Shown here piece by piece: positions 17,831-32,955 of a DNA stretch of 64,000 bases. Source of the DNA: Candidatus Woesearchaeota archaeon (GTDB taxonomy: Archaea; Nanobdellota; Nanobdellia; Woesearchaeales; UBA11576). The notes below the pieces were generated by a model that saw only the letters and a list, made by a program, of their open reading frames with translations, searched no databases and was not told the origin of the DNA. The position numbers and the translations under genes are program-made. The stretch is taken from the NCBI GenBank assembly GCA_043819495.1, contig JBDRET010000024.1, positions 7,177 to 71,176 of the forward strand, read 5' to 3'. The first letter of the stretch is position 1. Every line of letters begins with the position of its first letter.

Positions 17831-17894
17831 ATTGTGGGGTCAAGAACCCTGTGGCTATTTTATCATTCTACTGAATGAGGGTTCTTGACAATCT
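17831..17894 (+). repeat. Hairpin element family 2, copy 1
   Basis: 'attgtggggtcaagaaccc' + 29-nt loop + 'gggttcttgac'. It overlaps the 3' end of taw1. Confidence 0.5.
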
Positions 17895-18796
17895 TCTTTC
17901 ATCAGGAGGACAACTCTTGATGCTTCCTGCTCATCTATCATCTTATAGCCGCAGTGCTTGCAGAGCTCTTCTGCAAACTCTCTGACCTCTGGATGTAGAG
18001 GCATGTTCTCCATGGTAAGGCGTAGCTGTGAGGCCCCTACAAACATGTAAGCCTTCACCTCAACAAAGTGCGGCTCTGCCATCTGTATCAGTTCTGCGTA
18101 CTTTTCAGGGCTGTGCATATTCATCCCTTTGATGGTTGTGAGCCTCAAGCAGGTCCTGGTCCTATCCTTCATCTTATTCAGAATTGCCAAGCTTGTAAGC
18201 AGGCGCTTCCAGCTGTCATTACGCTCTGGTCTGCATATCTTCTTGTGAAGCTCTTCATCAGGAGCATCTATCGAGAGGTATATCTGTGTTGGTGGTTCGA
18301 GCTTTTCCATCACTTCTGGCAGCATGCCATTTGTCACGACAAATGATGAGAAGTTACGCTTCTTGAGCTCTCTTATGAATTCGCTGAGATGCGGGTAGTA
18401 GAGGGTCTCTCCTGTAAGTGATATCGCGAACTGATTAGGATTTTGGGCCTCTTCCAGTTTCTTCCTGTTTGTCTTCTCAAGCCCTCCAAAGCCTGAGATG
18501 AGCTTACGTTGGGCAGCTATGGCCTTATCAATCAGCGCCTTAGGATCGTCAATATTTGTGAATGGCTCATTGTAATGCTCGCGCCAGCAGTATACACAAT
18601 CCATGTCACAGTAATTGGTAGTCACAGACATCTGGCAGCAACGGTGGCAGCTGATGCCGTAGAACTTCTCCTTGTAGCATACTCCCTCATCTCTCAGGGA
18701 CTTCTTTGTCCAGGTACATATCTTGATAGCAGAATGGTCTCCTATGAACTTATACTGCTGTTTTTCTAGGAGTTTCTTGTGGGCTTCCTTGACCAT
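17855..18796 (-). CDS. taw1: tRNA 4-demethylwyosine synthase (Taw1/TYW1, radical SAM)
   Basis: 'GDHSAIKICTWTKKSL' together with the radical-SAM cluster 'CDMDCVYCWRE' is characteristic of TYW1. The start is trimmed to MVKEAH to avoid a 5' overlap with the divergent gene. Confidence 0.65.
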   Translation of the reverse strand: MVKEAHKKLLEKQQYKFIGDHSAIKICTWTKKSLRDEGVCYKEKFYGISCHRCCQMSVTTNYCDMDCVYCWREHYNEPFTNIDDPKALIDKAIAAQRKLISGFGGLEKTNRKKLEEAQNPNQFAISLTGETLYYPHLSEFIRELKKRNFSSFVVTNGMLPEVMEKLEPPTQIYLSIDAPDEELHKKICRPERNDSWKRLLTSLAILNKMKDRTRTCLRLTTIKGMNMHSPEKYAELIQMAEPHFVEVKAYMFVGASQLRLTMENMPLHPEVREFAEELCKHCGYKMIDEQEASRVVLLMKEDCQEPSFSRMIK

Positions 18797-18873
18797 TGCA
18801 TAGAGGAGTAGAGAGGGTTTTTTAAGGGTTGCGGCAGAGTAATATTTAAAAAGCAGAGGATATATAGCATCAT

Positions 18874-19302
18874 ATGCAAATAAAGTCCAAATCAATATTC
18901 ATCATTGTTTTAACATTGCTGCTGATTCTTATTATGGGTTGCAGCGTACCTGTGTGGAAATTAGAGTCAAAGCAGACAAGAAAGGTCTTGAATATCTATG
19001 TGGACGGCGGCTCAGGGGACGATGTCGGAGCCATACTCATATCAAAGATACGTATTGATTCCGGAAAGATAAACCTGACTATACTCGCTGAAGACCCACA
19101 GAACGACGTGCTCAAAGATGCGCTCAATGATATTGAATCCAAGGGCAACTTGTCTCTGACAGCAGAGAACATGGAAGGCGGCAATCTGGTGATGTTTGCG
19201 AAGCCTGTTGCTCCAGATGACCCTAATTATATATATGCTGTCAGCGAATCGCTCAGGATCGATTACGGTATCAGATCAGTGGTCGGAAAGGAAACTATTT
19301 AA
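18874..19302 (+). CDS. Small secreted protein / putative lipoprotein
   Basis: Signal peptide with a lipobox-like 'LILIMGC' sequence. Confidence 0.4.
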   Translation: MQIKSKSIFIIVLTLLLILIMGCSVPVWKLESKQTRKVLNIYVDGGSGDDVGAILISKIRIDSGKINLTILAEDPQNDVLKDALNDIESKGNLSLTAENMEGGNLVMFAKPVAPDDPNYIYAVSESLRIDYGIRSVVGKETI

Positions 19303-22949: not shown

Positions 22950-23834
22950 TCACTGTATAGGATAATTGAATTTTTGACCATCAGATAGCTTCCCTTCTTT
23001 GAACATCTCTAAGACCTTAAGTGCTGCAGAGACAGTATCCTCATGGCTTGTGGGCCTGTCAGTATTCACATACACGATCATTGACCCGTAAGAGTTTAGT
23101 AATGCCTTCAGCCACTCTGACCTGTACTTACCTTCAATCCTGCGCTGGAACTCAGGGACCTCAAATTTGCATTGGTCATCTTTGACCCTTTGAGCTTTCC
23201 GCTCCATAGCAGTATCTGCACTAAGATCGCATATCACGTAAAGATGAGGTGAATTCTCTGCAGCATAACTATTCCCTTGCATCCTCATTATATCATCAAC
23301 ACTGAGAGGATTGTCCATGGATGATTGGTATACTACGCTTGAGCAGAAGTTCCTTTCACAGTACACATCGATACCATCAAGTATTGCAGGCCTTATCAGC
23401 TTGGATATCAGTTCATGCCTATCCTCTGCATATGCTTCAGCAGCATCTTTTGCAGTATAACCAATGCCCTTCACTTCATGTATTATTTTTTTTCTTATCT
23501 TGAGCCCTATCCTGGCCCAGGTGGGTTCGCATACAAATAGTGTCTTGAGAGGCGCCCCGTTCTCATGCAGGTATCGCTCCTTGAGCATATTGTAATCAGG
23601 AATGATATCATCTGTGCCGTATATATCGTATAGTGAATTTCCTACTTCTGCAGGTATCTTCCCTTCTTCATCAGAAGGCCATAGAAGACGCATATCAAGG
23701 AAGCCATCACCTTCAGCTAAAAGCTTCTTCTTTATCGCATTTATTATGGAGCCTTTTCCGCCGCAGTCAATAGACTCTGCGACAAGGTATAATCCTGAAT
23801 CTTTCGAGTATCTTGAAATAGCCAGCATGATCAC
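22950..23834 (-). CDS. Thymidylate kinase-like P-loop kinase (long form, 294 aa)
   Basis: P-loop 'ESIDCGGKGS', 'FVCEPTWARIGLKIRKKI' (Tmk 'EPggt..g..iR'), and 'ERNFCSSVVYQSS' (Tmk DRY..S..AYQ). Confidence 0.5.
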   Translation of the reverse strand: MIMLAISRYSKDSGLYLVAESIDCGGKGSIINAIKKKLLAEGDGFLDMRLLWPSDEEGKIPAEVGNSLYDIYGTDDIIPDYNMLKERYLHENGAPLKTLFVCEPTWARIGLKIRKKIIHEVKGIGYTAKDAAEAYAEDRHELISKLIRPAILDGIDVYCERNFCSSVVYQSSMDNPLSVDDIMRMQGNSYAAENSPHLYVICDLSADTAMERKAQRVKDDQCKFEVPEFQRRIEGKYRSEWLKALLNSYGSMIVYVNTDRPTSHEDTVSAALKVLEMFKEGKLSDGQKFNYPIQ

Positions 23835-24034: not shown

Positions 24035-25801
24035 GTGCGATACAAGGGGTGTGACAGTTTGACAGAAGATATAGTGAACGATATTCTAGATTCAGAGGGA
24101 AATCTCAAACCGGGATTCAGTGGTATAGGTAAGCTAAGAGGCAAGACAGATTATACAAAAGATGAGGAGACAGTACTAAAGCATTTCTTCACCAATACGC
24201 ACTCAAATGTGTACTGCGCTACAGATAACATGCCAGGAGAGCTATGGGCATTGATAATGGGCCAGTATGCACGGAGCAGCATGACCGGAAGAGATAGGCT
24301 GCTCAAGCTGTTCACTGACATGGAAGAGAAAGGTGAAGCGATATCAGTATCCGAGCTAGCAGAGATGATACGATCTGGACGCGATGTCGCAGGAGCACTT
24401 CAAGCATACCTCAATAAAGCAGGGAATTTCATCGAGATATATGGTGTGAAGTACGGCCATGCATCACTACGAGATTCAGGTGTAATCAGAATATGTTTCG
24501 AAGGGGTGAGCCAGAGAGCCACCAAGTTCCTTGAGAGCGCCAGAGAGGGGGCATATCAGGAACAGTCTACCCGTGCCATCCCTTATGAGATGGAGAATCT
24601 TGGCGTCCCATATGAGATCCGTGACACCAAGTATGAGATCATCATACATGAGCTGGATGAGAAGCTCATCGAACTATACAATAAGATATACAATAAGCTG
24701 ATAGTATACCTGCCTAGTAAGTTTGCTCATCTCAGGGCCAAGGCCGATGAGAAGCTGGCTTCTGAGCTTGGCCGTGATGACGTGACGATAACTGACAGGG
24801 AGTGGAGCAGTATCATAGCTGCAAAGGCATTCGATGTCGCGAGATACCTGCTGCCTCAGAACATGACAACATCTTTAGGCATCACATTGAACACCCGAAG
24901 GTTCCAGGACAAGCTCACTGAATGGCAGTCCTCAGACATCATGGAGATGCAGGTGCTTGGAAAGGTGGCTCAGGTCGAGTCCATGAAGATAAGCCCTACG
25001 CTCATGAAGTACGGCAACAAGAGCCCGTATCATGTGAAGATACCTTCTGCACTTAAGGCGCTCAATAAGAAATTTGTAGTCAACAACAAGGCCTGTGCAG
25101 CTTTCCCTTACACACATTATGATGTCAGCTCAAAGATGATATCTGCCCCTGACGACCTGCAGGAACTGGTCCTTGCAAGCATACTGCTCAATGGTTCAGA
25201 TGGCAGTGTGAGCATGGATGAATTCAAGCAGATTGTAGGGAACATGTCATTTGATGAGAAACGTGAGGTCGCTGAGAGCGTAGCGTCAGATAAACCGTCT
25301 CATGACATATTCTCCAAGACGATGGAATGCGGATCAGTCATCTTTGAGAGAGTCTATGATATAGGTGCATTCAGGGACCTTCAGAGACAGAGAGGGGATA
25401 GGCAGCAATTCAACAGATATTCAGTCATAGGTTACAACATGCCTAAAGAGGTCGCAGAGATCGGTTTAAAGGCTGAGTTTGTCACTCTTATGAATGAAGT
25501 CAAGAATGTATATGATATGATGTGTGAAGAGGGTATCGCTGCGGCAGAGTATGTGCCTGTGATGGCAAATGTCCTGCGACACGTCGTCACAAAAGATCCT
25601 GTCCAGTGTTTCTATGAGGCGAAACTTAGAGCGCAGCCTGCAGGCATCGATTCTTACAGATCAATAGCTCAGCAGGAGATAACCCAACTTCTTGATGTGA
25701 TGCCTGTCTTCAAAGGTCTGGTACCCTACGATGCAGAATATTATAATCTTGGCAGGCTCGAAGAGACAGTCAATGGCAAGCTGAGGAAGCATAAGAAATA
25801 A
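24035..25801 (+). CDS. ThyX-like (flavin-dependent thymidylate synthase family) protein, tandem duplication of the ThyX domain with non-canonical RHR motifs
   Basis: First domain: 'GHASLRDSGVIRICFEG...FLESAREGAYQEQSTRA' aligns to ThyX 'GHETPFEHIVFTFHV...WFRHRIASYNELSGRY', and 'ARYLLPQNMTTSLGITLNTRRFQDKL' matches ThyX 'ARxvLPxNxxTxxxxTxNxRxLxxFL'. Second domain: 'AFRDLQRQRGDRQQFNRYS' and 'YVPVMANVLRHVVTKDPVQCFYEAKLR'. Confidence 0.45.
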   Translation: MRYKGCDSLTEDIVNDILDSEGNLKPGFSGIGKLRGKTDYTKDEETVLKHFFTNTHSNVYCATDNMPGELWALIMGQYARSSMTGRDRLLKLFTDMEEKGEAISVSELAEMIRSGRDVAGALQAYLNKAGNFIEIYGVKYGHASLRDSGVIRICFEGVSQRATKFLESAREGAYQEQSTRAIPYEMENLGVPYEIRDTKYEIIIHELDEKLIELYNKIYNKLIVYLPSKFAHLRAKADEKLASELGRDDVTITDREWSSIIAAKAFDVARYLLPQNMTTSLGITLNTRRFQDKLTEWQSSDIMEMQVLGKVAQVESMKISPTLMKYGNKSPYHVKIPSALKALNKKFVVNNKACAAFPYTHYDVSSKMISAPDDLQELVLASILLNGSDGSVSMDEFKQIVGNMSFDEKREVAESVASDKPSHDIFSKTMECGSVIFERVYDIGAFRDLQRQRGDRQQFNRYSVIGYNMPKEVAEIGLKAEFVTLMNEVKNVYDMMCEEGIAAAEYVPVMANVLRHVVTKDPVQCFYEAKLRAQPAGIDSYRSIAQQEITQLLDVMPVFKGLVPYDAEYYNLGRLEETVNGKLRKHKK

Positions 25802-26075: not shown

Positions 26076-26891
26076 TCAACTGAGCGCTAATCTGGTCCTC
26101 ACATTTTTCTGTATCTGGTCTTTTCTCAGCCACCATACCCCCAGATAAGCGAATGGAGTGTCAAGCAGGGCGCAGAATATCTTGAATATCCAGAACGGAA
26201 CGATAAGAGATATGACAAATATTGCGTCCCACATAGGGGCGGTCTTGTAAAATGCCACAAACATGAACACTACACTGTCAATCAGTTGGCTCACTACCGT
26301 CGATGCGTTGTTACGCAGCCATAAGTGCTTACCTTCTGTCTTTCGTTTCCAGAACTCGAATGCCCACAGGTCATGCACCTGGGCGATGACAAATGCGAGT
26401 ATGCTTGCGATCGTCATGCGGATGGTCGCCTTGAATATCATAGAGAAACTGTTGTTGTCTATCGATCGTTCAGAAGCAGGGACTGCTATTGCGATAGATG
26501 TTATGACTATCATCAGAAGAAGCGCTATCACCCCTGTGGTGATGAACTCCATCACTTTCTTTTTCCCATGCACCTCAGCGATAATGTCAGTTATCAGGAA
26601 CATCAGAGGGACTGTGAGGATGCCTACAGAGACACTTATAGTATTGAAGAAGCCTAGTGATATCTCCCGTCCACCCATGGTGAGGAGGAAAGTCTTGAGA
26701 GCATATATTATCGGGAAGAACAGGATGTTGAGCGGTGTAGAAATGAATGAAGGCAGGTCAAACTGAGTTATCTTGCTGCCCAGCACATTCGCCAATATCA
26801 ATGAAGCGACAAATAGGCCTAATAATATGTTGGTCTTCTCTTTCATGTCAAACCGCATGTATCTAACCCCCGAATCAAGCAGTTTTGACAT
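26076..26891 (-). CDS. YhhQ/DUF165-family queuosine/archaeosine precursor (preQ0) transporter
   Basis: 7-TM protein with 'FLITDIIAEVHGKKK', 'ILANVLGSK' and 'FVIAQVHDLWAFEF', resembling YhhQ/QueT-family motifs. Confidence 0.55.
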   Translation of the reverse strand: MSKLLDSGVRYMRFDMKEKTNILLGLFVASLILANVLGSKITQFDLPSFISTPLNILFFPIIYALKTFLLTMGGREISLGFFNTISVSVGILTVPLMFLITDIIAEVHGKKKVMEFITTGVIALLLMIVITSIAIAVPASERSIDNNSFSMIFKATIRMTIASILAFVIAQVHDLWAFEFWKRKTEGKHLWLRNNASTVVSQLIDSVVFMFVAFYKTAPMWDAIFVISLIVPFWIFKIFCALLDTPFAYLGVWWLRKDQIQKNVRTRLALS

Positions 26892-27010: not shown

Positions 27011-28195
27011 ATGGATGTCCAAATTACATATGATGATGTATTGAAGCACATGAACAGCATGGAGTTCTCAGGCATGAAGCTCGGGATAGAGCGGATACAG
27101 AACGCACTGGCCTTGCTTGGCAACCCTGAGAGACTGCTAAAGATAATACACATAACAGGCACGAATGGAAAAGGCTCTGTGGCAGCCATGCTGTCCACTA
27201 TGCTGAAGAATGCAGGCCATAGCGTGGGGATGTTCACTTCACCACATCTTGTCGATGTCAGGGAAAGGATACAGATAAATGATGTCCTTATCAGCAAAGA
27301 TGCTCTTAAAGAGACATTCCTGGAAGCAAAAGATGTACTGTCTGAACTGACGTTCTTTGAACTGTTCACATTGATGGCAGTGCTTTATTTTGTGAAGAAT
27401 AAAGTTGATTATGCAATATTTGAGGTAGGTCTCGGGGGCACTTACGATGCGACCAATTTCAAGAACTCTTTCATCTCAGTCATAACCAAGATTGCCCTTG
27501 ACCATACTGCAATATTAGGGGATTCTGTGGATCAGATAGCGCAGGACAAGTGCGGCATAATAAAACATGGCCAGAAGGTTGTCACGACGCAAGCTAACGA
27601 GCAGGTCATGGGGGTGATATCATCTGTTGCCAGGAAGAAAGAAGCACAACTCATTGTAGCCCGCAATACCGACAGACCCCTGTCGCTCAATGGACAGTTC
27701 CAAAGAGAGAATGCAGGAGTCGCAATCCAGGTTGCCAAAGAGTTATGCATACCTGATAAGGTAATATCCGATTCATTGCTTTCAGTCAGATGGCCTGGAA
27801 GGGCAGAATTCATAGAAAAGAATGTTCTGCTTGACTGTGCCCATAACCCTTCAGGTGTAGATGCATTGAGACATTATGTCGATACGCTGGACCATCAACG
27901 CATAATAATCGTTTTTGCTGTAAGCAAAAATAAGGACTATATGGAGATGCTTAGCTTGTTACCGAAGCATGATGAGCTCATATTTACACAATCCACAGTG
28001 ACCCGAAGGCTTCCGATAGAGGATATCCCTAAGGGCATATCATGTACGAGAATAAGTGATCCTATCAAGGCGCTTGAGCATGCAAAATCAATATCGAAAG
28101 AGGGAGACCTCATAGTCGTCTGTGGATCGATATTCCTGATAGGCGACATAAAAGCGGCACTAACCGACAAGCTTGTCCATGATATTGTTTCCTAA
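27011..28195 (+). CDS. folC: Folylpolyglutamate synthase / dihydrofolate synthase (Mur-ligase family)
   Basis: 'HITGTNGKGSVAAM' P-loop, 'TSPHL', and 'FEVGLGG' Mur-ligase motifs. Confidence 0.7.
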   Translation: MDVQITYDDVLKHMNSMEFSGMKLGIERIQNALALLGNPERLLKIIHITGTNGKGSVAAMLSTMLKNAGHSVGMFTSPHLVDVRERIQINDVLISKDALKETFLEAKDVLSELTFFELFTLMAVLYFVKNKVDYAIFEVGLGGTYDATNFKNSFISVITKIALDHTAILGDSVDQIAQDKCGIIKHGQKVVTTQANEQVMGVISSVARKKEAQLIVARNTDRPLSLNGQFQRENAGVAIQVAKELCIPDKVISDSLLSVRWPGRAEFIEKNVLLDCAHNPSGVDALRHYVDTLDHQRIIIVFAVSKNKDYMEMLSLLPKHDELIFTQSTVTRRLPIEDIPKGISCTRISDPIKALEHAKSISKEGDLIVVCGSIFLIGDIKAALTDKLVHDIVS

Positions 28196-28708
28196 ATCTA
28201 TGCAGGCCAGCTTTGTGTCTTCTTGTCTGTCGACATCTCCAGGGTCTTCTGCCTGTGCAATAACAGAGCCTACAGGGAGCACACCCATGACCTCGCAGTA
28301 TTTCTCGAGAATCTGTACAACGACCTTTGTCTCTTCTATGGCTCTGGCACCTACGCAAACTATTGCAGTAGCCTTCCCTTTGAGCAGTTGTGGATCTGAT
28401 AGCGGATTGGTACGGTCGATGAAATTCTTCATCAATCCAGTGACATTATCGAAGTAATTAGGGCTTCCAAAGACGATGGCATCAACTTCGAGCATCTTCG
28501 ATAACAACTGTTCCATGTCATCATTGATGACACAAGGACGTTCACTCCCGTAGCAGACGCCACAGCCATTGCAGAATTTTATATCAAAATCGCTGATCTT
28601 GATGATCTCGGTCTGGGCGTCACGTGCTCTGCAGGAATCCAGGATCCACGTGAGCAATCTTTTCGTGTTGCCTTCCTGCGGACTTCCACAGATGCCTAGG
28701 ACCTTCAT
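28160..28708 (-). CDS. NADPH-dependent FMN reductase / iron-sulfur flavoprotein-like
   Basis: '[14 protein letters not shown]', the Cys cluster '[14 protein letters not shown]', and '[10 protein letters not shown]'. Confidence 0.6.
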
Positions 28709-29985
28709 TCTATTAACCCTTCATATATCGGGAATCTCCTGCAGAGATCGAGTACTTCTGCTTTCACCTTTGATTTGGCATAGACATTATTCGGGTTCTT
28801 GATTATCTGTGATATGAATACGCCGATTATGCGCATCTCGTCTTCCTTCATGCCCCTTGTTGTCAGGGCAGGTGTGCCTATCCTTATCCCAGAAGGGTTG
28901 AATGGAGAACGGGTGTCAAAAGGTATCATGTTCTTGTTCGTGAATATCAATGCCTCATCAAGGGCTTTCTCAATCTCCTTTCCGCCGAATCCAGTCGGAG
29001 AGATATCGATGAGCATGAGGTGGTTATCAGTCCCACCTGAGACGAGCTTGACTCCTTGGTCCATGAGGGTCTCTGCAAGCACCTTAGCATTCTTGAGCAC
29101 TTGTCTCTGGTAAACATTGAAATCAGGATGGAGCGCCTCTCCGAAAGCTACTGCCTTTGCAGCTATTATGTGATCAAGAGGTCCGCCCTGCATGCCAGGG
29201 AACACTGCAGAATCTATCTTCTGGGCCAGGTTCTTCTTATCATCAGGTCTCAGCTTGTCATCTATCTTAGAGAGTATCATAGCGCCTCTTGGTCCTCTCA
29301 GTGTCTTGTGTGTCGTAGTGGTAACTACATCACAGAAAGGCACAGGATTCTGGTGGAGTCCTGCTGCGATGAGGCCTGCAATGTGAGCGATATCTGCCAT
29401 GTGGTATGCACCTACCTCATCAGCGATCTCCTGGAATTCCTCGAAGTCAAGCTTCCGCGGATATGCGCTGAAACCTGACAGTATGAGCTTTGGTCTTTCT
29501 CTCTTTGCTATCTTCCTTACCTGGTCCATGTCCAGGCGATGCGTCTTTGGGTCGACGCCATAGCTTGTAAAATTGTAGAACTTTCCAGAGAAATTGACCG
29601 GGCTGCCATGAGTGAGGTGACCTCCATGCGCAAGGTCCATACCTAGAATCTTATCACCCAGGTTAAGAAGTGCGAAGTACGCCTCCATATTGGCCTGTGA
29701 TCCTGCATGCGGCTGAACATTTGCATGCTCTGCACCGAACAGCATCTTTGCCCTGTCAATCGCGAGCTTTTCAGATACATCTATGTGCTCATTGCCAGCA
29801 TAGTAGCGCTTTCCTGCGTATCCCTCACTGTACTTGTTCGTGAGGACAGAACCCATCGCCTGCATGACAGCTTTAGAGACATAATTCTCAGATGCTATGA
29901 GCTCAACGCCCTTCCTCTGCCTGGCCAGCTCATTCTTCACGACGGAGAATATTTCAGGATCTTTCTCTTCCAGATTTCGCATCAT
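28705..29985 (-). CDS. glyA: Serine hydroxymethyltransferase
   Basis: 'LIASENYVS', the PLP-lysine region '[16 protein letters not shown]', and '[13 protein letters not shown]'. 4-nt overlap with the downstream flavoprotein gene. Confidence 0.9.
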
Positions 29986-30187: not shown

Positions 30188-31252
30188 ATGAAATCCTGTC
30201 AAAAGATGATAATCGGACTTGTCGGCATGTATGCATCAGGAAAGGATTCTGTCGCAGAGCATCTTGTCGAGAAAGGATTCACACATCTTTCCCTTTCTGA
30301 TATGTTACGAGAAGAGCTGAGGAAGAGAGGTCTAGATATAACCCGTGATAACCTTATAAATGTAGGAAACGAATTAAGAACGGTTCACGGGCATGGCGTG
30401 CTGGGGAAAAGAGCATTAGAGAACATAAAAGGCAAAGAAGGTGATTTTGTAGTCAGTTCTATCAGACATCCTGCAGAAGTAAAAGAGCTCATGCAGCATG
30501 GACATTTCTTCCTTGTTGACGTGCGGGCACCGATCAAGACGCGTTTTAAATGGATAAAGAAACGCAATAGGGAGAACGATCCTAAGACCCTGTCTGATCT
30601 AAAGGCAAAAGAAGCTCTTGAGAGTCAGAAAGAAGGACCTGGACAGCAGCTGACTAATACTATGAAGCTTGCGACGTTTGTGTTGTCCAATGACAGCACA
30701 CTCAAGAAACTTCAGGATAAGACTGACAAACTGGCCGTAGACCTCAAGAAGAAGGCTGAGACTATGTCAGAGTATGTGCGGCCTAGTTGGGATGAGTATT
30801 TCATGGGTATAATGGAAGCGGTCGCAGTGAGAGCAACATGTGCCCGTGGAAGGACCGCTTCAGTCATAGTCAAGGATAAGAGGATACTTGCGACAGGATA
30901 TGTCGGAAGTCCTGTAGGAGTACCTCATTGTGATGAGGCAGGTCATGAGTTCAAGCGGATGATACATGATGATGGAAGTGTCTCCCAGCACTGTGTCAGG
31001 ACAAGCCATGCAGAGCAGAACGCAATCTGTCTTGCAGCAAGGAATGGTGTTGCGATAGATGGAGCGACAATTTATTGCAAACTTGCCCCTTGCTATACCT
31101 GTGCAAAGATGATAATCAACTCAGGGATAGTAAGAGTGGTCTGCAAGATGAGATATCATGCAGATAAGGATAGCATGCGCATCTTCAAGCAGGCAGGCAT
31201 AGATATTGTCGTGTTGAATGATGATGTAGCTACATATGATGGGATGAAGTGA
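30188..31252 (+). CDS. Fusion protein: N-terminal UPF0200-like P-loop (d)NMP kinase, C-terminal dCMP deaminase
   Basis: N-terminal 'MIIGLVGMYASGKDS'. C-terminal zinc motifs 'HAEQNAI' and 'APCYTCAKMI' (CMP/dCMP deaminase). Confidence 0.65.
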   Translation: MKSCQKMIIGLVGMYASGKDSVAEHLVEKGFTHLSLSDMLREELRKRGLDITRDNLINVGNELRTVHGHGVLGKRALENIKGKEGDFVVSSIRHPAEVKELMQHGHFFLVDVRAPIKTRFKWIKKRNRENDPKTLSDLKAKEALESQKEGPGQQLTNTMKLATFVLSNDSTLKKLQDKTDKLAVDLKKKAETMSEYVRPSWDEYFMGIMEAVAVRATCARGRTASVIVKDKRILATGYVGSPVGVPHCDEAGHEFKRMIHDDGSVSQHCVRTSHAEQNAICLAARNGVAIDGATIYCKLAPCYTCAKMIINSGIVRVVCKMRYHADKDSMRIFKQAGIDIVVLNDDVATYDGMK

Positions 31253-31308
31253 CTTTTTAGATAGCTTCATAAATATTTATAAACTCCATTTCTTTTTGCA
31301 TGATTGAT

Positions 31309-31884
31309 ATGATAATCGCTATCACAGGCACGATAAGTTCCGGCAAAGGCAAAGTCGCAGAGCTGTTCCGGGACAAGGGATTCAAGCATCATAGTTTTTC
31401 TTCTGAGATACGTCAGGTCGCAAAGGAACATGGTATCGAGATAAACAGGAAGAACCTGAGCAAGCTTGGGCACGATTTGCGAGTCGAGAGTCCAAAAGAG
31501 TCAATTCTTGGTAAGCGGCTTCTTGATAAAATATTGAAAGAGATCGATAAGGGTGAGAAGAACTTTGTCATTGAGGGGTTGCGTGATTCTGATGAGGTTG
31601 ACATGTTTAGGAAGCACGAACTTGAGCGACCAGAGCAACGTTTCATACTCATCGGTGTCGATGCTCTGCAGGAAGTGCGTTTTGAACGGATGAAGAAGCG
31701 CGGAAGGCATGGTGAGCCAGAGACATTCGAGGAATTCAAGGCCATCGATGACCACGAATTGCTCGGTGACCAGGGACAGGAAGTCGGGAAGACGCTGAAT
31801 ATGTCTGATTATGTGATACAGAATGATAAGGGTCTCGAAGAGCTCAAGCAGAAGGTCGAGGATATCTCTTCGGAGATACTATAG
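31309..31884 (+). CDS. UPF0200-family P-loop kinase (paralog of the N-domain of the previous gene)
   Basis: 'MIIAITGTISSGKGKVAELFRDKGF' parallels 'MIIGLVGMYASGKDSVAEHLVEKGF'. 'tttataaa' lies ~30 nt upstream. Confidence 0.55.
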   Translation: MIIAITGTISSGKGKVAELFRDKGFKHHSFSSEIRQVAKEHGIEINRKNLSKLGHDLRVESPKESILGKRLLDKILKEIDKGEKNFVIEGLRDSDEVDMFRKHELERPEQRFILIGVDALQEVRFERMKKRGRHGEPETFEEFKAIDDHELLGDQGQEVGKTLNMSDYVIQNDKGLEELKQKVEDISSEIL

Positions 31885-32955
31885 TCTGCTGTCAGTAGCT
31901 CCAGTCTGTTCATTGTACTGTGATTTATCTTTATCTTCTAGTTCCCATGGCGAGTGCAGATAATACAGATGGAAATCTGCGAGCCGTTCTCCAGGTCTTA
32001 TTGTCACATCAGTCATAGCATAATTCTCGAATGTTATCTTACCACTGAATCTTGGGAATGGATCTATCTTTGGCGCACCTGCATGCGTCTGGAGCGAAGA
32101 GTGTCGTGAATACTCGTGGATGCCTGGCCCCACATATCCTGAAGTCGGCATCAGGTGATTCCATTCATGCACCCAACCCACAAAATGCTTGTCGATGCTT
32201 ACCTCTTCAGCGCTTGCTGAGAGAAAGAAAGTACCTGCTTTGATATATGTTCCTCTGTTTGCGAGCCTTCTCTCTTTAAACCATGTCGGGCTAGGCTCCT
32301 TTGGGTCGATTACCTCTCCGGTGTATATCTTTATTATCGGATCATGGGTAAGGGTGAATCCGCTGTTCATCTTCCTGCCGCCGGGAACTTTGGCACCTAC
32401 CTTGTATCCTTCATCTATTGCAAAAGTCTGCACAAGACGTTGTATCTCTTTACCTCGTCTTGTTATCTTCAGCTGTCCTGTCTTAATCTCTTCCCTGAGA
32501 ACATCGTCCAGAGCAGGGATGAAACCTCCGAACGCTATATGTGCCTGGGCAATCGTATCGCCAGGTCTTATCTTCACAGTCGTTCCGAGAGTGCGTATGC
32601 TGCAGATCACCTTGCCATAGAAATCACCATGCGGTTCAGAGAACTCATCGTGGACATCTGCAGATGCAACACCATACCTTGCCCAGCTGCTACGTGAGTT
32701 TATCTTACCATGGAACCAGTGTGAGAACCTGAATCTCTCTACTGTCTCGTATAAGAAAAAATCTCCTGGTTTCAGGAGCCAATATTCACCATCAATGAGA
32801 GGGACTTCTTTCATATCTTTACGGTCCTGAGAAGGAGTGAGAAGCTGACCTATCCGTACATCAAGAGAAGTCGCATTGATTTCTGTAATGCCTTCTATAT
32901 CTATAAGACCATGGTCTCTTGCAGCAGTCATATCTTGTTTACAGAGTATAGGCAT
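31879..32955 (-). CDS. Tandem dCTP deaminase/dUTPase-fold protein (Dcd-like, duplicated)
   Basis: 'INSRSSWARYGV' (Dcd 'RSSLARxGL'), 'VHDEFSEPHGDFYGKVICSIRTLG', and a second degenerate copy 'GAPKIDPFPRFSGKITFEN...IRPGERLADF'. Confidence 0.5.
   Translation of the reverse strand: MPILCKQDMTAARDHGLIDIEGITEINATSLDVRIGQLLTPSQDRKDMKEVPLIDGEYWLLKPGDFFLYETVERFRFSHWFHGKINSRSSWARYGVASADVHDEFSEPHGDFYGKVICSIRTLGTTVKIRPGDTIAQAHIAFGGFIPALDDVLREEIKTGQLKITRRGKEIQRLVQTFAIDEGYKVGAKVPGGRKMNSGFTLTHDPIIKIYTGEVIDPKEPSPTWFKERRLANRGTYIKAGTFFLSASAEEVSIDKHFVGWVHEWNHLMPTSGYVGPGIHEYSRHSSLQTHAGAPKIDPFPRFSGKITFENYAMTDVTIRPGERLADFHLYYLHSPWELEDKDKSQYNEQTGATDSRL

Follow-up and report, generated by a model that had tools for sequence, protein, structure and literature searches.

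A fused two-domain ThyX-family protein with its active-site residues divided between the halves in a Woesearchaeota-type archaeon

ThyX, the FAD-dependent thymidylate synthase (FDTS), is of interest both as a target for antimicrobials and for the study of flavin-mediated methylene transfer, for which it serves as a model, and the Chlamydia trachomatis protein CT632 is reportedly an active FDTS. The residues lining a ThyX active site are drawn from several subunits: the RHR motif and Arg199 of the Mycobacterium tuberculosis enzyme (Mtb; Arg174 in Thermotoga maritima, Tm) come from subunit A, Ser71 and Arg190 (Mtb) from subunit B, and Arg87, Ser105, Arg107 and Tyr108 (Mtb) from subunit C (review PMC6514825). 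Likewise, the paper on the PBCV-1 ThyX structure places Ser88 on one monomer and Gln75 together with the Arg174 equivalent on another. Tyr91 is described as a strictly conserved and catalytically critical lid or general acid, and in T. maritima ThyX the Y91A substitution slows the dUMP-triggered step more than 100-fold (PMC11940539, PMC8316439). Among the papers covered by a full-text literature search there was no report of a fused ThyX architecture or of thymidylate synthesis in DPANN archaea. We describe here a fused ThyX homologue of a DPANN clade, encoded in a window of 64 kb (the whole stretch of DNA analysed), and compare its residues, relatives and genomic surroundings with those of the known enzymes.

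Domain layout, family assignment and distribution

The features discussed below are listed in Table 1. An identical protein has been deposited (P0001, 'Candidatus Woesearchaeota archaeon'), with a start eight codons later than that of our ORF, and is annotated as FAD-dependent thymidylate synthase. The Pfam model Thy1 (PF02511) scored 63.8 bits on the whole protein against a cutoff of 24.8 and matched it in two stretches, which disposes of the possibility, raised along with the original prediction, that an HMM search would lead to an unrelated family. Separate scans of the halves gave 44.6 bits for the N-half and, slightly below the same cutoff, 22.5 bits for the C-half. The NCBIfam equivalog model for thyX, TIGR02170, did not reach its cutoff (18.2 versus 87.9 bits), and phmmer against PDB sequences gave only marginal matches for the fused protein. 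Despite the failure of the equivalog model, the name 'FAD-dependent thymidylate synthase' is a reasonable one.

Table 1. Positions of the fused thyX gene, its domains and active-site segments, and neighbouring genes in the window
Feature	Position	Strand	Remarks
Fused two-domain ThyX ORF	24035..25801	+	588 aa from GTG 24035; deposited protein 580 aa from TTG 24059
Clade-specific N-terminal extension, residues 1-39	24035..24151	+	Conserved 'PGFSGIGxxRG(R/K)'
N-half ThyX domain, residues ~40-345	24152..25069	+	dUMP-loop side; Thy1, HMMER, hhalign 93.8%
H142-A-S144	24458..24466	+	Tm His53-x-Thr55 (Mtb His69/Ser71); His in 26/26 clade, Ser in 49/49 fused
S168-A169-R170	24536..24544	+	Degenerate N-half 'RHR' position; HMMER, hhalign, alignment
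E176-Q-S178-T-R180-A181	24560..24577	+	dUMP loop (Tm Glu86, Ser88, Arg90, Tyr91); E, S, R in 49/49
R270	24842..24844	+	Tm Arg147 equivalent; N-half; 49/49
R288	24896..24898	+	Tm Arg165 / Mtb Arg190, third-subunit FAD phosphate ligand; 26/26 clade
E296-W297	24920..24925	+	N-half Arg174 position, degenerate; hhalign, alignment
C-half ThyX domain, residues 353-588	25091..25798	+	RxR/Arg174 side; complete ThyX fold when modelled alone
R447-D-L-Q-R451-Q452-R453	25373..25393	+	Tm Arg74 ... Arg78-His79-Arg80; R451, R453 in 49/49
L531-R532	25625..25630	+	Tm Leu173-Arg174, uracil-activating Arg; 49/49
dTMP-kinase-like gene, 294 aa	22950..23834	-	Divergent to thyX
FolC, folylpolyglutamate/dihydrofolate synthase family	27011..28195	+	TIGR01499, 335 bits versus 162.65
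NADPH-dependent FMN reductase	28160..28708	-	4-nt overlap with upstream SHMT gene
Serine hydroxymethyltransferase (SHMT)	28705..29985	-	Maker of the CH2-THF methylene donor
P-loop kinase and dCMP/cytidine deaminase fusion	30188..31252	+	Candidate dUMP supply
dCTP-deaminase-like protein, 358 aa	31879..32955	-	Two DCD stretches

Against a canonical ThyX profile of 120 sequences, hhalign aligned the N-half with a probability of 93.8% (E = 1.8e-7) and placed S168-A169-R170 on T. maritima R78-H79-R80; HMMER against M. tuberculosis ThyX likewise put these three residues on the RHR position. The C-half alignment was weak (E = 0.0023, and uninformative with a single T. maritima sequence in place of the profile), yet it ran end to end (Tm 6-216) and set R451-Q452-R453 on R78-H79-R80. 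Given this weakness, the placement of the C-half rests on the fold search and on collinear bacterial homologues, which read 'RDLQRHR' at the triad and support the position given to R451-Q452-R453.

The full-length AF2 model had a pLDDT of 92.1 and a pTM of 0.90, with the N-terminal extension well ordered, and the C-half modelled alone (pLDDT 91.2) gave whole-length matches only to ThyX structures (TM 0.60-0.66). All significant PDB matches listed by Foldseek were members of the ThyX family, with TM values of about 0.6-0.74, and no solved structure in the PDB fold search spanned both halves of the full-length model. Both halves have the ThyX fold. The original prediction of a 588-aa tandem ThyX fusion was therefore upheld by the two Pfam stretches, by hhalign and by the models; the alignment and structure model that it had proposed as checks yielded a ThyX residue mapping and a ThyX fold for both halves, and two segments that it had singled out, 'AYQEQSTRA' (residues 173-181) and ARYLLPQNMTTSLGITLNTRRF (residues 269-290), are both present in the N-half.

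By tblastn, collinear fused homologues were found in at least 580 species-representative genomes, in taxa including Chlamydia crocodili, Sorangium, Chloroflexus, cyanobacteria, Acidobacteriota, Patescibacteria and other DPANN; the match in C. crocodili (L066, 534 aa) covers residues 39-577 of the window protein. An exhaustive search gave 1310 50%-identity representatives, and the pattern of N-half and C-half motifs was detected in 75 of 80 loci. The fused, split-site ThyX architecture is of an already known kind, as in Chlamydia.

Active-site residues in the two halves

Conservation was counted over 49 aligned fused homologues, comprising 26 orthologues from the clade and 23 others. Without exception, their C-half carries the equivalents of R78, R80 and R174, which the N-half lacks, and their N-half those of E86, S88, R90 and R147, which the C-half lacks. 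The contiguous motif RHRxxSxxxxSxR(Y) occurs in neither domain and is complete only when both halves are combined: the N-half reads SAR....S.RA, and in the C-half RQR precedes a loop shorter by two residues and lacking Ser88. The residues in contact with dUMP and FAD (R78, R80, S88, R90, R147, R165, R174, H53 and T55/S) each have one equivalent per chain, in one half or the other, and are fixed in the clade.

The placement of the residues that subunit B contributes in the canonical site (role B) is not uniform across the family, as the Arg165 equivalent lies in the N-half in the clade and in the C-half in bacteria, and most bacterial fused forms have Gln at the position of R288. The 'NTRR' segment holds this Arg165 equivalent according to both the T. 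maritima residue count and hhalign, and on the same grounds an assignment of Arg174 to the segment was rejected.

The original prediction had read SAR in domain 1 (S168-A-R170) and RQR in domain 2 (R451-Q-R453), which HMMER and hhalign confirm and orthologues share. Its picture of an asymmetric fused ThyX pair thus holds as far as the structure goes, but the novel substrate chemistry or regulatory paralogue that it drew from the asymmetry does not follow, because the halves keep complementary subsets of residues from different tetramer subunits, and asymmetry alone is no pointer to new chemistry.

What is unusual in the clade is the replacement of Tyr91 and His79 within an otherwise known kind of enzyme. 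The Tyr91 position is Ala (A181) in 26/26 clade orthologues and Tyr in all 23 other fused forms, and position 452 (His79) is Gln in 25 of the 26 and His in 21 of the 23, with sporadic replacement of His79 by Q or N in other fused ThyX. A third change affects the His of the C-half motif 'G-H-x-x-Y-R', which has become Ile or Ala in 23/26 clade members. The resulting signature, STRA / RDLQRQR / G-(I/A)-D-S-Y-R, contrasts with STRY / RDLQRHR / G-H-x-x-Y-R in the non-clade members examined; STRY/RHR is kept in 75/75 other fused ThyX scanned, and G-H in all 70 of those where the third motif could be located. Strict covariation of the His79-to-Gln change with loss of G-H was considered and rejected, since P0065 combines RHR with G-I, and P0050, P0062 and P0066 combine RQR with G-H. 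Polar residues flanking the site (R146, S148, D455, R456, Q458, H516 and Y441) are also fixed specifically in the clade. The original prediction had set 'STRA' beside 'SGRY' without flagging the loss of Tyr91.

Genomic context, proposed function and alternatives

The surroundings of thyX, with genes for a dTMP kinase, FolC, SHMT, FMN reductase and dCMP/dCTP deaminase-like proteins, form a cluster that fits thymidylate synthesis. The order tmk / thyX / folC / FMN reductase / SHMT / kinase-dCMP deaminase is seen again in two further genomes (L001 and L002), whose ThyX is 67-69% identical; elsewhere, tmk lies directly downstream of thyX (L082), or tmk and a dCTP-deaminase gene lie near it (L081). 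No other ThyA or ThyX was found in the 64-kb window by tblastn with T. maritima ThyX and an approximate E. coli ThyA query, a search insensitive to very divergent forms, as the T. maritima query gives no match to the fused gene at E < 10.

We favour, with a probability of about three in four, the reading that the protein is a fused two-domain ThyX/FDTS of a Woesearchaeota-type DPANN archaeon, with complementary decay of its halves, that works as a half-of-sites dimer and converts dUMP to dTMP. An ancient duplication and fusion would have been followed by the decay of each half in a complementary way. In the C-half, R451-x-R453 would bind the phosphate, ribityl and isoalloxazine moieties of FAD as well as the dUMP phosphate, and R532 would polarise the uracil; the N-half would provide another subunit's share, namely the dUMP loop E176/S178/R180, along with R270. 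In the clade it bears H142/S144/R288, the residues of the third subunit, as well. Two such chains would dimerise into a pseudo-tetramer with two complete and two vestigial active sites, each live site spanning both chains. It is from this division of residues that we infer a dimer holding two complete sites where the canonical tetramer has four, although the quaternary topology is only tentative given the non-uniform placement of role-B residues. Thymidylate synthase activity of the fused protein is likewise inferred: with FAD, a reductant and the CH2-THF made by the neighbouring SHMT, the enzyme would methylate dUMP to dTMP, which would then pass to the adjacent dTMP kinase. In weighing this reading we counted against it Ala181 in place of Tyr91, Gln in place of His79, the equivalog score of 18.2 against 87.9 bits and the non-uniform role-B placement.

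The loss of Tyr91 in the clade leaves a small opening for an altered mechanism. The protein could still be a flavin- and folate-dependent enzyme modifying pyrimidines at C5, with its chemistry or product changed by the loss of Tyr91 and His79, for example if it used another proton donor, had another rate-limiting step, depended on the neighbouring FMN reductase, released a hydroxymethyl intermediate or accepted UMP or dCMP. Such a change would accord with the critical role of Tyr91 (PMC11940539, PMC8316439) and with the fixation of Ala181 (26/26), Gln452 (25/26) and the Ile or Ala replacing the G-H His (23/26) at positions that other fused ThyX keep, as well as with the clade-fixed polar residues near the site, the N-terminal extension and the conservation of the FMN reductase in the cluster. 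Substrate shifts also occur in this fold, as PolB, a UMP/dUMP methylase, is among the best Foldseek matches, but the PolB match is a fold-level one, at 13-14% identity and barely above that of T. maritima ThyX. The equivalents of R78, R80, E86, S88, R90, R147, R165, R174, H53 and T55 are all intact, the context is one of dTMP kinase, SHMT, FolC and dUMP-generating deaminases, and cells need a source of dTMP, of which no other was seen in the 64-kb window. On balance, we regard an altered mechanism or product as rather unlikely. It is doubtful to a somewhat greater degree that the clade forms a mechanistically distinct subclass, in which a half-of-sites fused enzyme lacking the Tyr91 gate or acid and His79 would use another proton donor or flavin gating, possibly coupled to the neighbouring FMN reductase, or make another product.

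If the protein were a degenerate relative of ThyX with a non-catalytic or regulatory role and had ceased to make dTMP, this would explain why the ThyX motif is intact in neither half, why the equivalog score falls below its threshold and why Tyr91 is missing. However, the losses are exactly complementary rather than random, and the remaining residues are invariant across archaea and bacteria. Chlamydia, tabulated without ThyA and Tdk, has the same architecture, and here the gene is syntenic with thymidylate-cycle genes in a window with no other thymidylate synthase, so that we consider such a paralogue very improbable. That two adjacent thyX genes were joined, or the motif variants created, by sequencing or assembly error is next to impossible, since dozens of independent assemblies carry one unbroken ORF of unchanged length and order, at least 580 reference genomes contain it, the single-chain model reaches a pTM of 0.90, and the 26 orthologues conserve the SAR and RQR motifs (Arg170 equivalent 26/26, Ala169 22/26, Gln452 25/26) where the original prediction had allowed for a canonical RHR.

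Read as a fused ThyX, the protein represents a natural experiment in which the contributions of different subunits to one site have been parted onto two linked domains. The split of residues independently backs the three-subunit model of the active site and predicts a two-site enzyme, and the natural absence of Tyr91 in the DPANN clade provides a ready test of whether this residue is required or can be bypassed. The finding would also indicate that the dTMP cycle stays compact and self-contained in these reduced DPANN genomes.

Comparison with known ThyX-fold enzymes

Among other divergent members of the fold, PolB, the polyoxin UMP/dUMP C5-methylase (PDB 4P5A/4P5B), was the top-ranked Foldseek match of both the whole protein and the C-half. 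It is a single-domain protein, its match to the fused ThyX is barely better than those of ordinary ThyX, and it belongs to a secondary-metabolite context, in contrast to the thymidylate/folate cluster found here. The atypical ThyX of Corynebacterium glutamicum (PDB 3FNN/3GE9) is also noncanonical, being not required for thymidylate synthesis according to the PDB titles, and offers a precedent for a divergent ThyX; it is, however, a single-domain protein that occurs alongside ThyA, whereas no co-resident thymidylate synthase was seen in the 64-kb window.

Each half of the fused protein has the same fold as the canonical homotetrameric ThyX (T. maritima TM0449, PDB 1O26; M. tuberculosis, PDB 2AF6/3GWC), the ten canonical residues listed above as intact all have equivalents somewhere in the chain, and the same FAD/CH2-THF/dUMP chemistry is expected. 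In contrast to the four canonical sites, each at a three-subunit interface, there are here two domains per chain, RHR...S.R(Y) is split between them, and two sites are predicted. Further differences are Ala for Tyr91, Gln for His79, the 39-residue N-terminal extension and a score below the TIGR02170 cutoff.

The bacterial fused ThyX of Chlamydia, Acidimicrobiia, Chloroflexota and cyanobacteria, among others, are collinear with the window protein over about 88-95% of the length at 23-33% identity, with values of 27-33% over 86-95% of the query in one of the searches. They have no N-terminal extension, unlike the DPANN clade, and carry STRY, RHR and G-H where the clade has STRA, RQR and G-I/A. 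Their N-half has Asp at the His53 position and Gln at that of Arg165, whose equivalent lies in the C-half, whereas the N-half of the DPANN clade has the canonical H/S/R. In neither group does the N-half contain RHR; in both it has E-x-S-(T/S)-R together with the Arg147 equivalent, and RDLQR-x-R and L-R are found in the C-half.

A tandem pair of ThyX domains

The ORF encodes 588 aa when counted from the GTG at 24035, and its product is identical to a deposited sequence (P0001, 'FAD-dependent thymidylate synthase [Candidatus Woesearchaeota archaeon]') whose start is the TTG at 24059, giving 580 aa (N-terminus MTEDIV...). The start codon is ambiguous, the TTG fitting the N-termini of orthologs better. 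The whole protein matched Pfam Thy1 (PF02511) in two stretches at 63.8 bits (gathering score 24.8); scanned apart, the N-half (residues ~40-345) scored 44.6 bits and the C-half (353-588) 22.5 bits, and the NCBIfam ThyX equivalog model gave 18.2 bits for the protein against a cutoff of 87.9. In the AlphaFold2 full-length model (input 49 homologs; pLDDT 92.1, pTM 0.90), the order of strands and helices occurs twice. All significant PDB matches listed by Foldseek were ThyX-family structures, each ~230 columns long and none covering both halves, and the C-half modelled alone (pLDDT 91.2) matched only ThyX structures, with the full length of the C-half covered (TM 0.60-0.66). Because of this repeated fold order, the restriction of PDB matches to ThyX, and the matches of the C-half model, both halves are predicted to be complete ThyX domains, in agreement with the tandem fold that had been proposed. 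Membership of the fused two-domain ThyX family is practically certain.

A 39-residue N-terminal extension with a conserved 'PGFSGIGxxRG(R/K)' is found only in the window's DPANN clade and is modelled with high confidence.

Complementary halves and the predicted active sites

A single ThyX active site is assembled from three subunits (PMC6514825). Subunit A supplies the RHR motif, which binds FAD phosphates, ribityl and isoalloxazine and whose first Arg also touches dUMP, together with a further dUMP contact, Arg199 in M. tuberculosis (Arg174 in T. maritima); subunit B supplies the FAD contacts Ser71 and Arg190 (Thr55 and Arg165 in T. maritima); and subunit C supplies Arg87, Ser105, Arg107 and Tyr108 (T. 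maritima equivalents Ser88, Arg90 and Tyr91) (PMC6514825). The PBCV-1 ThyX paper concurs: Gln75 and the Arg174 equivalent belong to a different monomer from Ser88.

Residues were numbered on T. maritima ThyX, whose sequence was checked to be identical to PDB 1KQ4/1O26. HMMER against M. tuberculosis ThyX and hhalign against a profile built from 120 canonical ThyX sequences (93.8% probability) placed N-half H142 at His53, S144 at Thr55, S168-A169-R170 at Arg78-His79-Arg80, E176 at Glu86, S178 at Ser88, R180 at Arg90, A181 at Tyr91, R270 at Arg147 and R288 at Arg165, the Arg174 position being occupied by E296/W297. The C-half hhalign was weak (E 0.0023) yet end to end, and agreed with bacterial fused homologs, which have 'RDLQRHR' and 'ELR' at the matching places: R447 corresponds to Arg74, R451-Q452-R453 to Arg78-His79-Arg80 and L531-R532 to Leu173-Arg174, while E505 lies at Arg147, V523 at Arg165, and the dUMP loop is two residues shorter, without Ser88. 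The original prediction had read the RHR position as SAR in the N-half and RQR in the C-half. Both readings are borne out by this mapping, and their retention in 26 orthologs (43-74% identity; R170 in 26/26, A169 in 22/26, Q452 in 25/26) shows that they are not errors.

The two halves divide these roles between them. Only subunit-A residues remain in the C-half, whereas the N-half keeps those of subunit C and, in the window clade, also those of subunit B. With 26 fused proteins from DPANN and 23 from bacteria aligned, the C-half equivalents of R78, R80, L173 and R174 are invariant (49/49) and absent from the N-half, and the N-half equivalents of E86, S88, R90 and R147 are just as invariant and absent from the C-half. 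Since the residues sort by half in this manner, the sequences indicate that complementary subfunctionalisation after duplication and fusion, not haphazard motif loss, accounts for the asymmetry. Complementary halves thus replace the altered chemistry that the original prediction had drawn from it.

Two N-halves and two C-halves would occupy the four positions of the D2 ThyX tetramer, and a live site would draw role A from a C-half and role C from an N-half. When the three two-fold operations are enumerated, each dimer of fused chains comes out with exactly two complete sites and two vestigial ones, regardless of which half fills role B; such a two-site dimer is likely. Within the window clade, H142, S144 and R288 are each present in the N-half in 26/26, where the C-half has F/Y/N, K and V; this placement would favour both N-halves serving each live site. 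However, in bacterial forms it is the C-half that carries the Arg165 equivalent (23/23), the N-half having Gln there (18/23), and their second pair of sites is far less decayed than that of the window clade, which makes this arrangement of halves tentative.

In these bacterial proteins (the Acidimicrobiia type, P0077-P0120, and Chlamydia, L066), the N-half has x-G-R, sometimes R-G-R, with Arg at the Arg174 column in 17/23, and the C-half has the Arg90 equivalent in 18/23. Their partly decayed second sites might retain a ligand-binding role.

Departures from STRY and RHR are limited to the window's clade (L001-L003) among 75 fused ThyX from reference genomes, as are departures from G-H among the 70 loci that yielded this motif. 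In the 49-protein alignment, the Tyr91 position is Ala in 26/26 of the window clade versus Tyr in 23/23 elsewhere, and the His79 position Gln in 25/26 versus His in 21/23; in a C-half insertion, Ile/Ala replaces His in 23/26 (His in 23/23 elsewhere). The literature treats Tyr91 as critical and strictly conserved; its mutation lowers flavin oxidation ~1000-fold, and the reduced flavin is gated by a hydrogen bond between Tyr91 and His53 (PMC11940539). The window clade has kept His53 and lost Tyr91, whereas the Chlamydia/Acidimicrobiia type has kept Tyr91 and has Asp at His53. It is this clade-wide loss of both Tyr91 and His79, and not the SAR/RQR asymmetry, that leaves a modest probability of a mechanism or product different from standard ThyX, which we consider unlikely. 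The loss could be compensated by polar residues fixed in the clade near the site (R146, S148, Y441, D455, R456, Q458, H516) or by the N-terminal extension. Thymidylate synthase is by far the best functional assignment, and we put the probability that the protein makes dTMP at about 0.8.

A thymidylate/one-carbon gene cluster

Features of the window around the fused ThyX gene
Feature	Coordinates	Strand	Remark
Radical-SAM protein, wyosine-base-formation domain (TYW1/Taw1-like)	17855-18895	-	
dTMP-kinase-like (Tmk)	22950-23834	-	divergent from thyX
Fused ThyX	24035-25801	+	
N-terminal extension of ThyX	24035-24151	+	
Vut_1/queuosine-precursor-transporter family	26076-26891	-	
FolC	27011-28195	+	
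NADPH-dependent FMN reductase	28160-28708	-	PF03358; 4-nt overlap with stop of upstream SHMT
SHMT	28705-29985	-	
P-loop kinase fused to dCMP/cytidine deaminase	30188-31252	+	
Stand-alone paralog of the fusion's kinase domain	31300-31884	+	
dCTP-deaminase-like	31879-32955	-	

The gene lies in a compact thymidylate/one-carbon cluster, and no ThyA or canonical ThyX was found within the 64-kb window. Two genomes representing other species, L001 and L002 (ThyX 67-69% identical), keep these genes in the sequence tmk, thyX, folC, FMN reductase, SHMT, kinase-deaminase; of two more genomes, L082 has Tmk directly downstream of thyX, and L081 has it near thyX, beside a dCTP-deaminase gene. Because SHMT would provide CH2-THF, the deaminases possibly dUMP, and Tmk would use dTMP, the cluster is predicted to cover the full ThyX cycle, with no requirement for DHFR.

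The FMN reductase-SHMT pair stands beside folC and thyX in three genomes (the window, L001 8981-10806 and L002 7149-8974), and the reductase might serve ThyX as a flavin reductase or stand in for a missing folate reductase. The kinase-deaminase fusion, also present in L001 and L002, is sub-threshold for both NCBIfam 'anti-phage dCTP deaminase' (102 bits, cutoff 400) and ComEB dCMP deaminase (114, cutoff 219), and could be a housekeeping source of dUMP or a defence-like enzyme. The dCTP-deaminase-like protein (358 aa, ~2x the usual length) has two DCD stretches, and a 389-aa DCD_N/DCD/DCD_C/DCD protein is encoded near the ThyX ortholog at L081 (13959-15128); the dCTP-deaminase-like protein may be a second duplicated-and-fused enzyme of the pathway. 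The dTMP-kinase-like protein is long (294 aa; orthologous neighbours 285-365 aa), with a Pfam match beginning only at residue 87, an atypical P-loop 'DCGGKGS' and a TIGR00041 score of 71.5, under the cutoff of 83.25. The Vut_1 gene separates thyX from folC in the window genome only, folC following thyX directly in L001 and L002. The TYW1/Taw1-like gene is consistent with an archaeal origin of the window.

Distribution and comparison with known fused ThyX

The fused two-domain family is known and widespread. In a search with each species represented by a single genome, fused relatives were confirmed in at least 580 genomes, including Chlamydia crocodili, uncultured Chlamydiae, Sorangium cellulosum, Chloroflexus, Roseiflexus, Calothrix, Prochloron, Acidimicrobiia, Acidobacteriota, Patescibacteria, Micrarchaeia and other Woese-, Pace- and Nanoarchaeota. 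An exhaustive search (E <= 1e-3) returned 1310 representatives at 50% identity, the window's clade reducing to a few of these. Other DPANN archaea (L004-L009 and L025, from Woese-, Pace- and Nanoarchaeota) have a subtype with GH(S/D)S, STRY and RHR; as it differs in these motifs and shares only 25-31% identity with the window protein, the sequences point to two or more deeply diverged fused lineages within DPANN.

Chlamydia is tabulated without ThyA and Tdk, and the C. trachomatis ThyX was reportedly shown by Griffin and colleagues in 2005 to be an active FDTS. The Chlamydia fused protein (534 aa) has 'DAR...EKSSRY' in its N-half and 'RDLQRHR...ELRSQIQGH' in its C-half.
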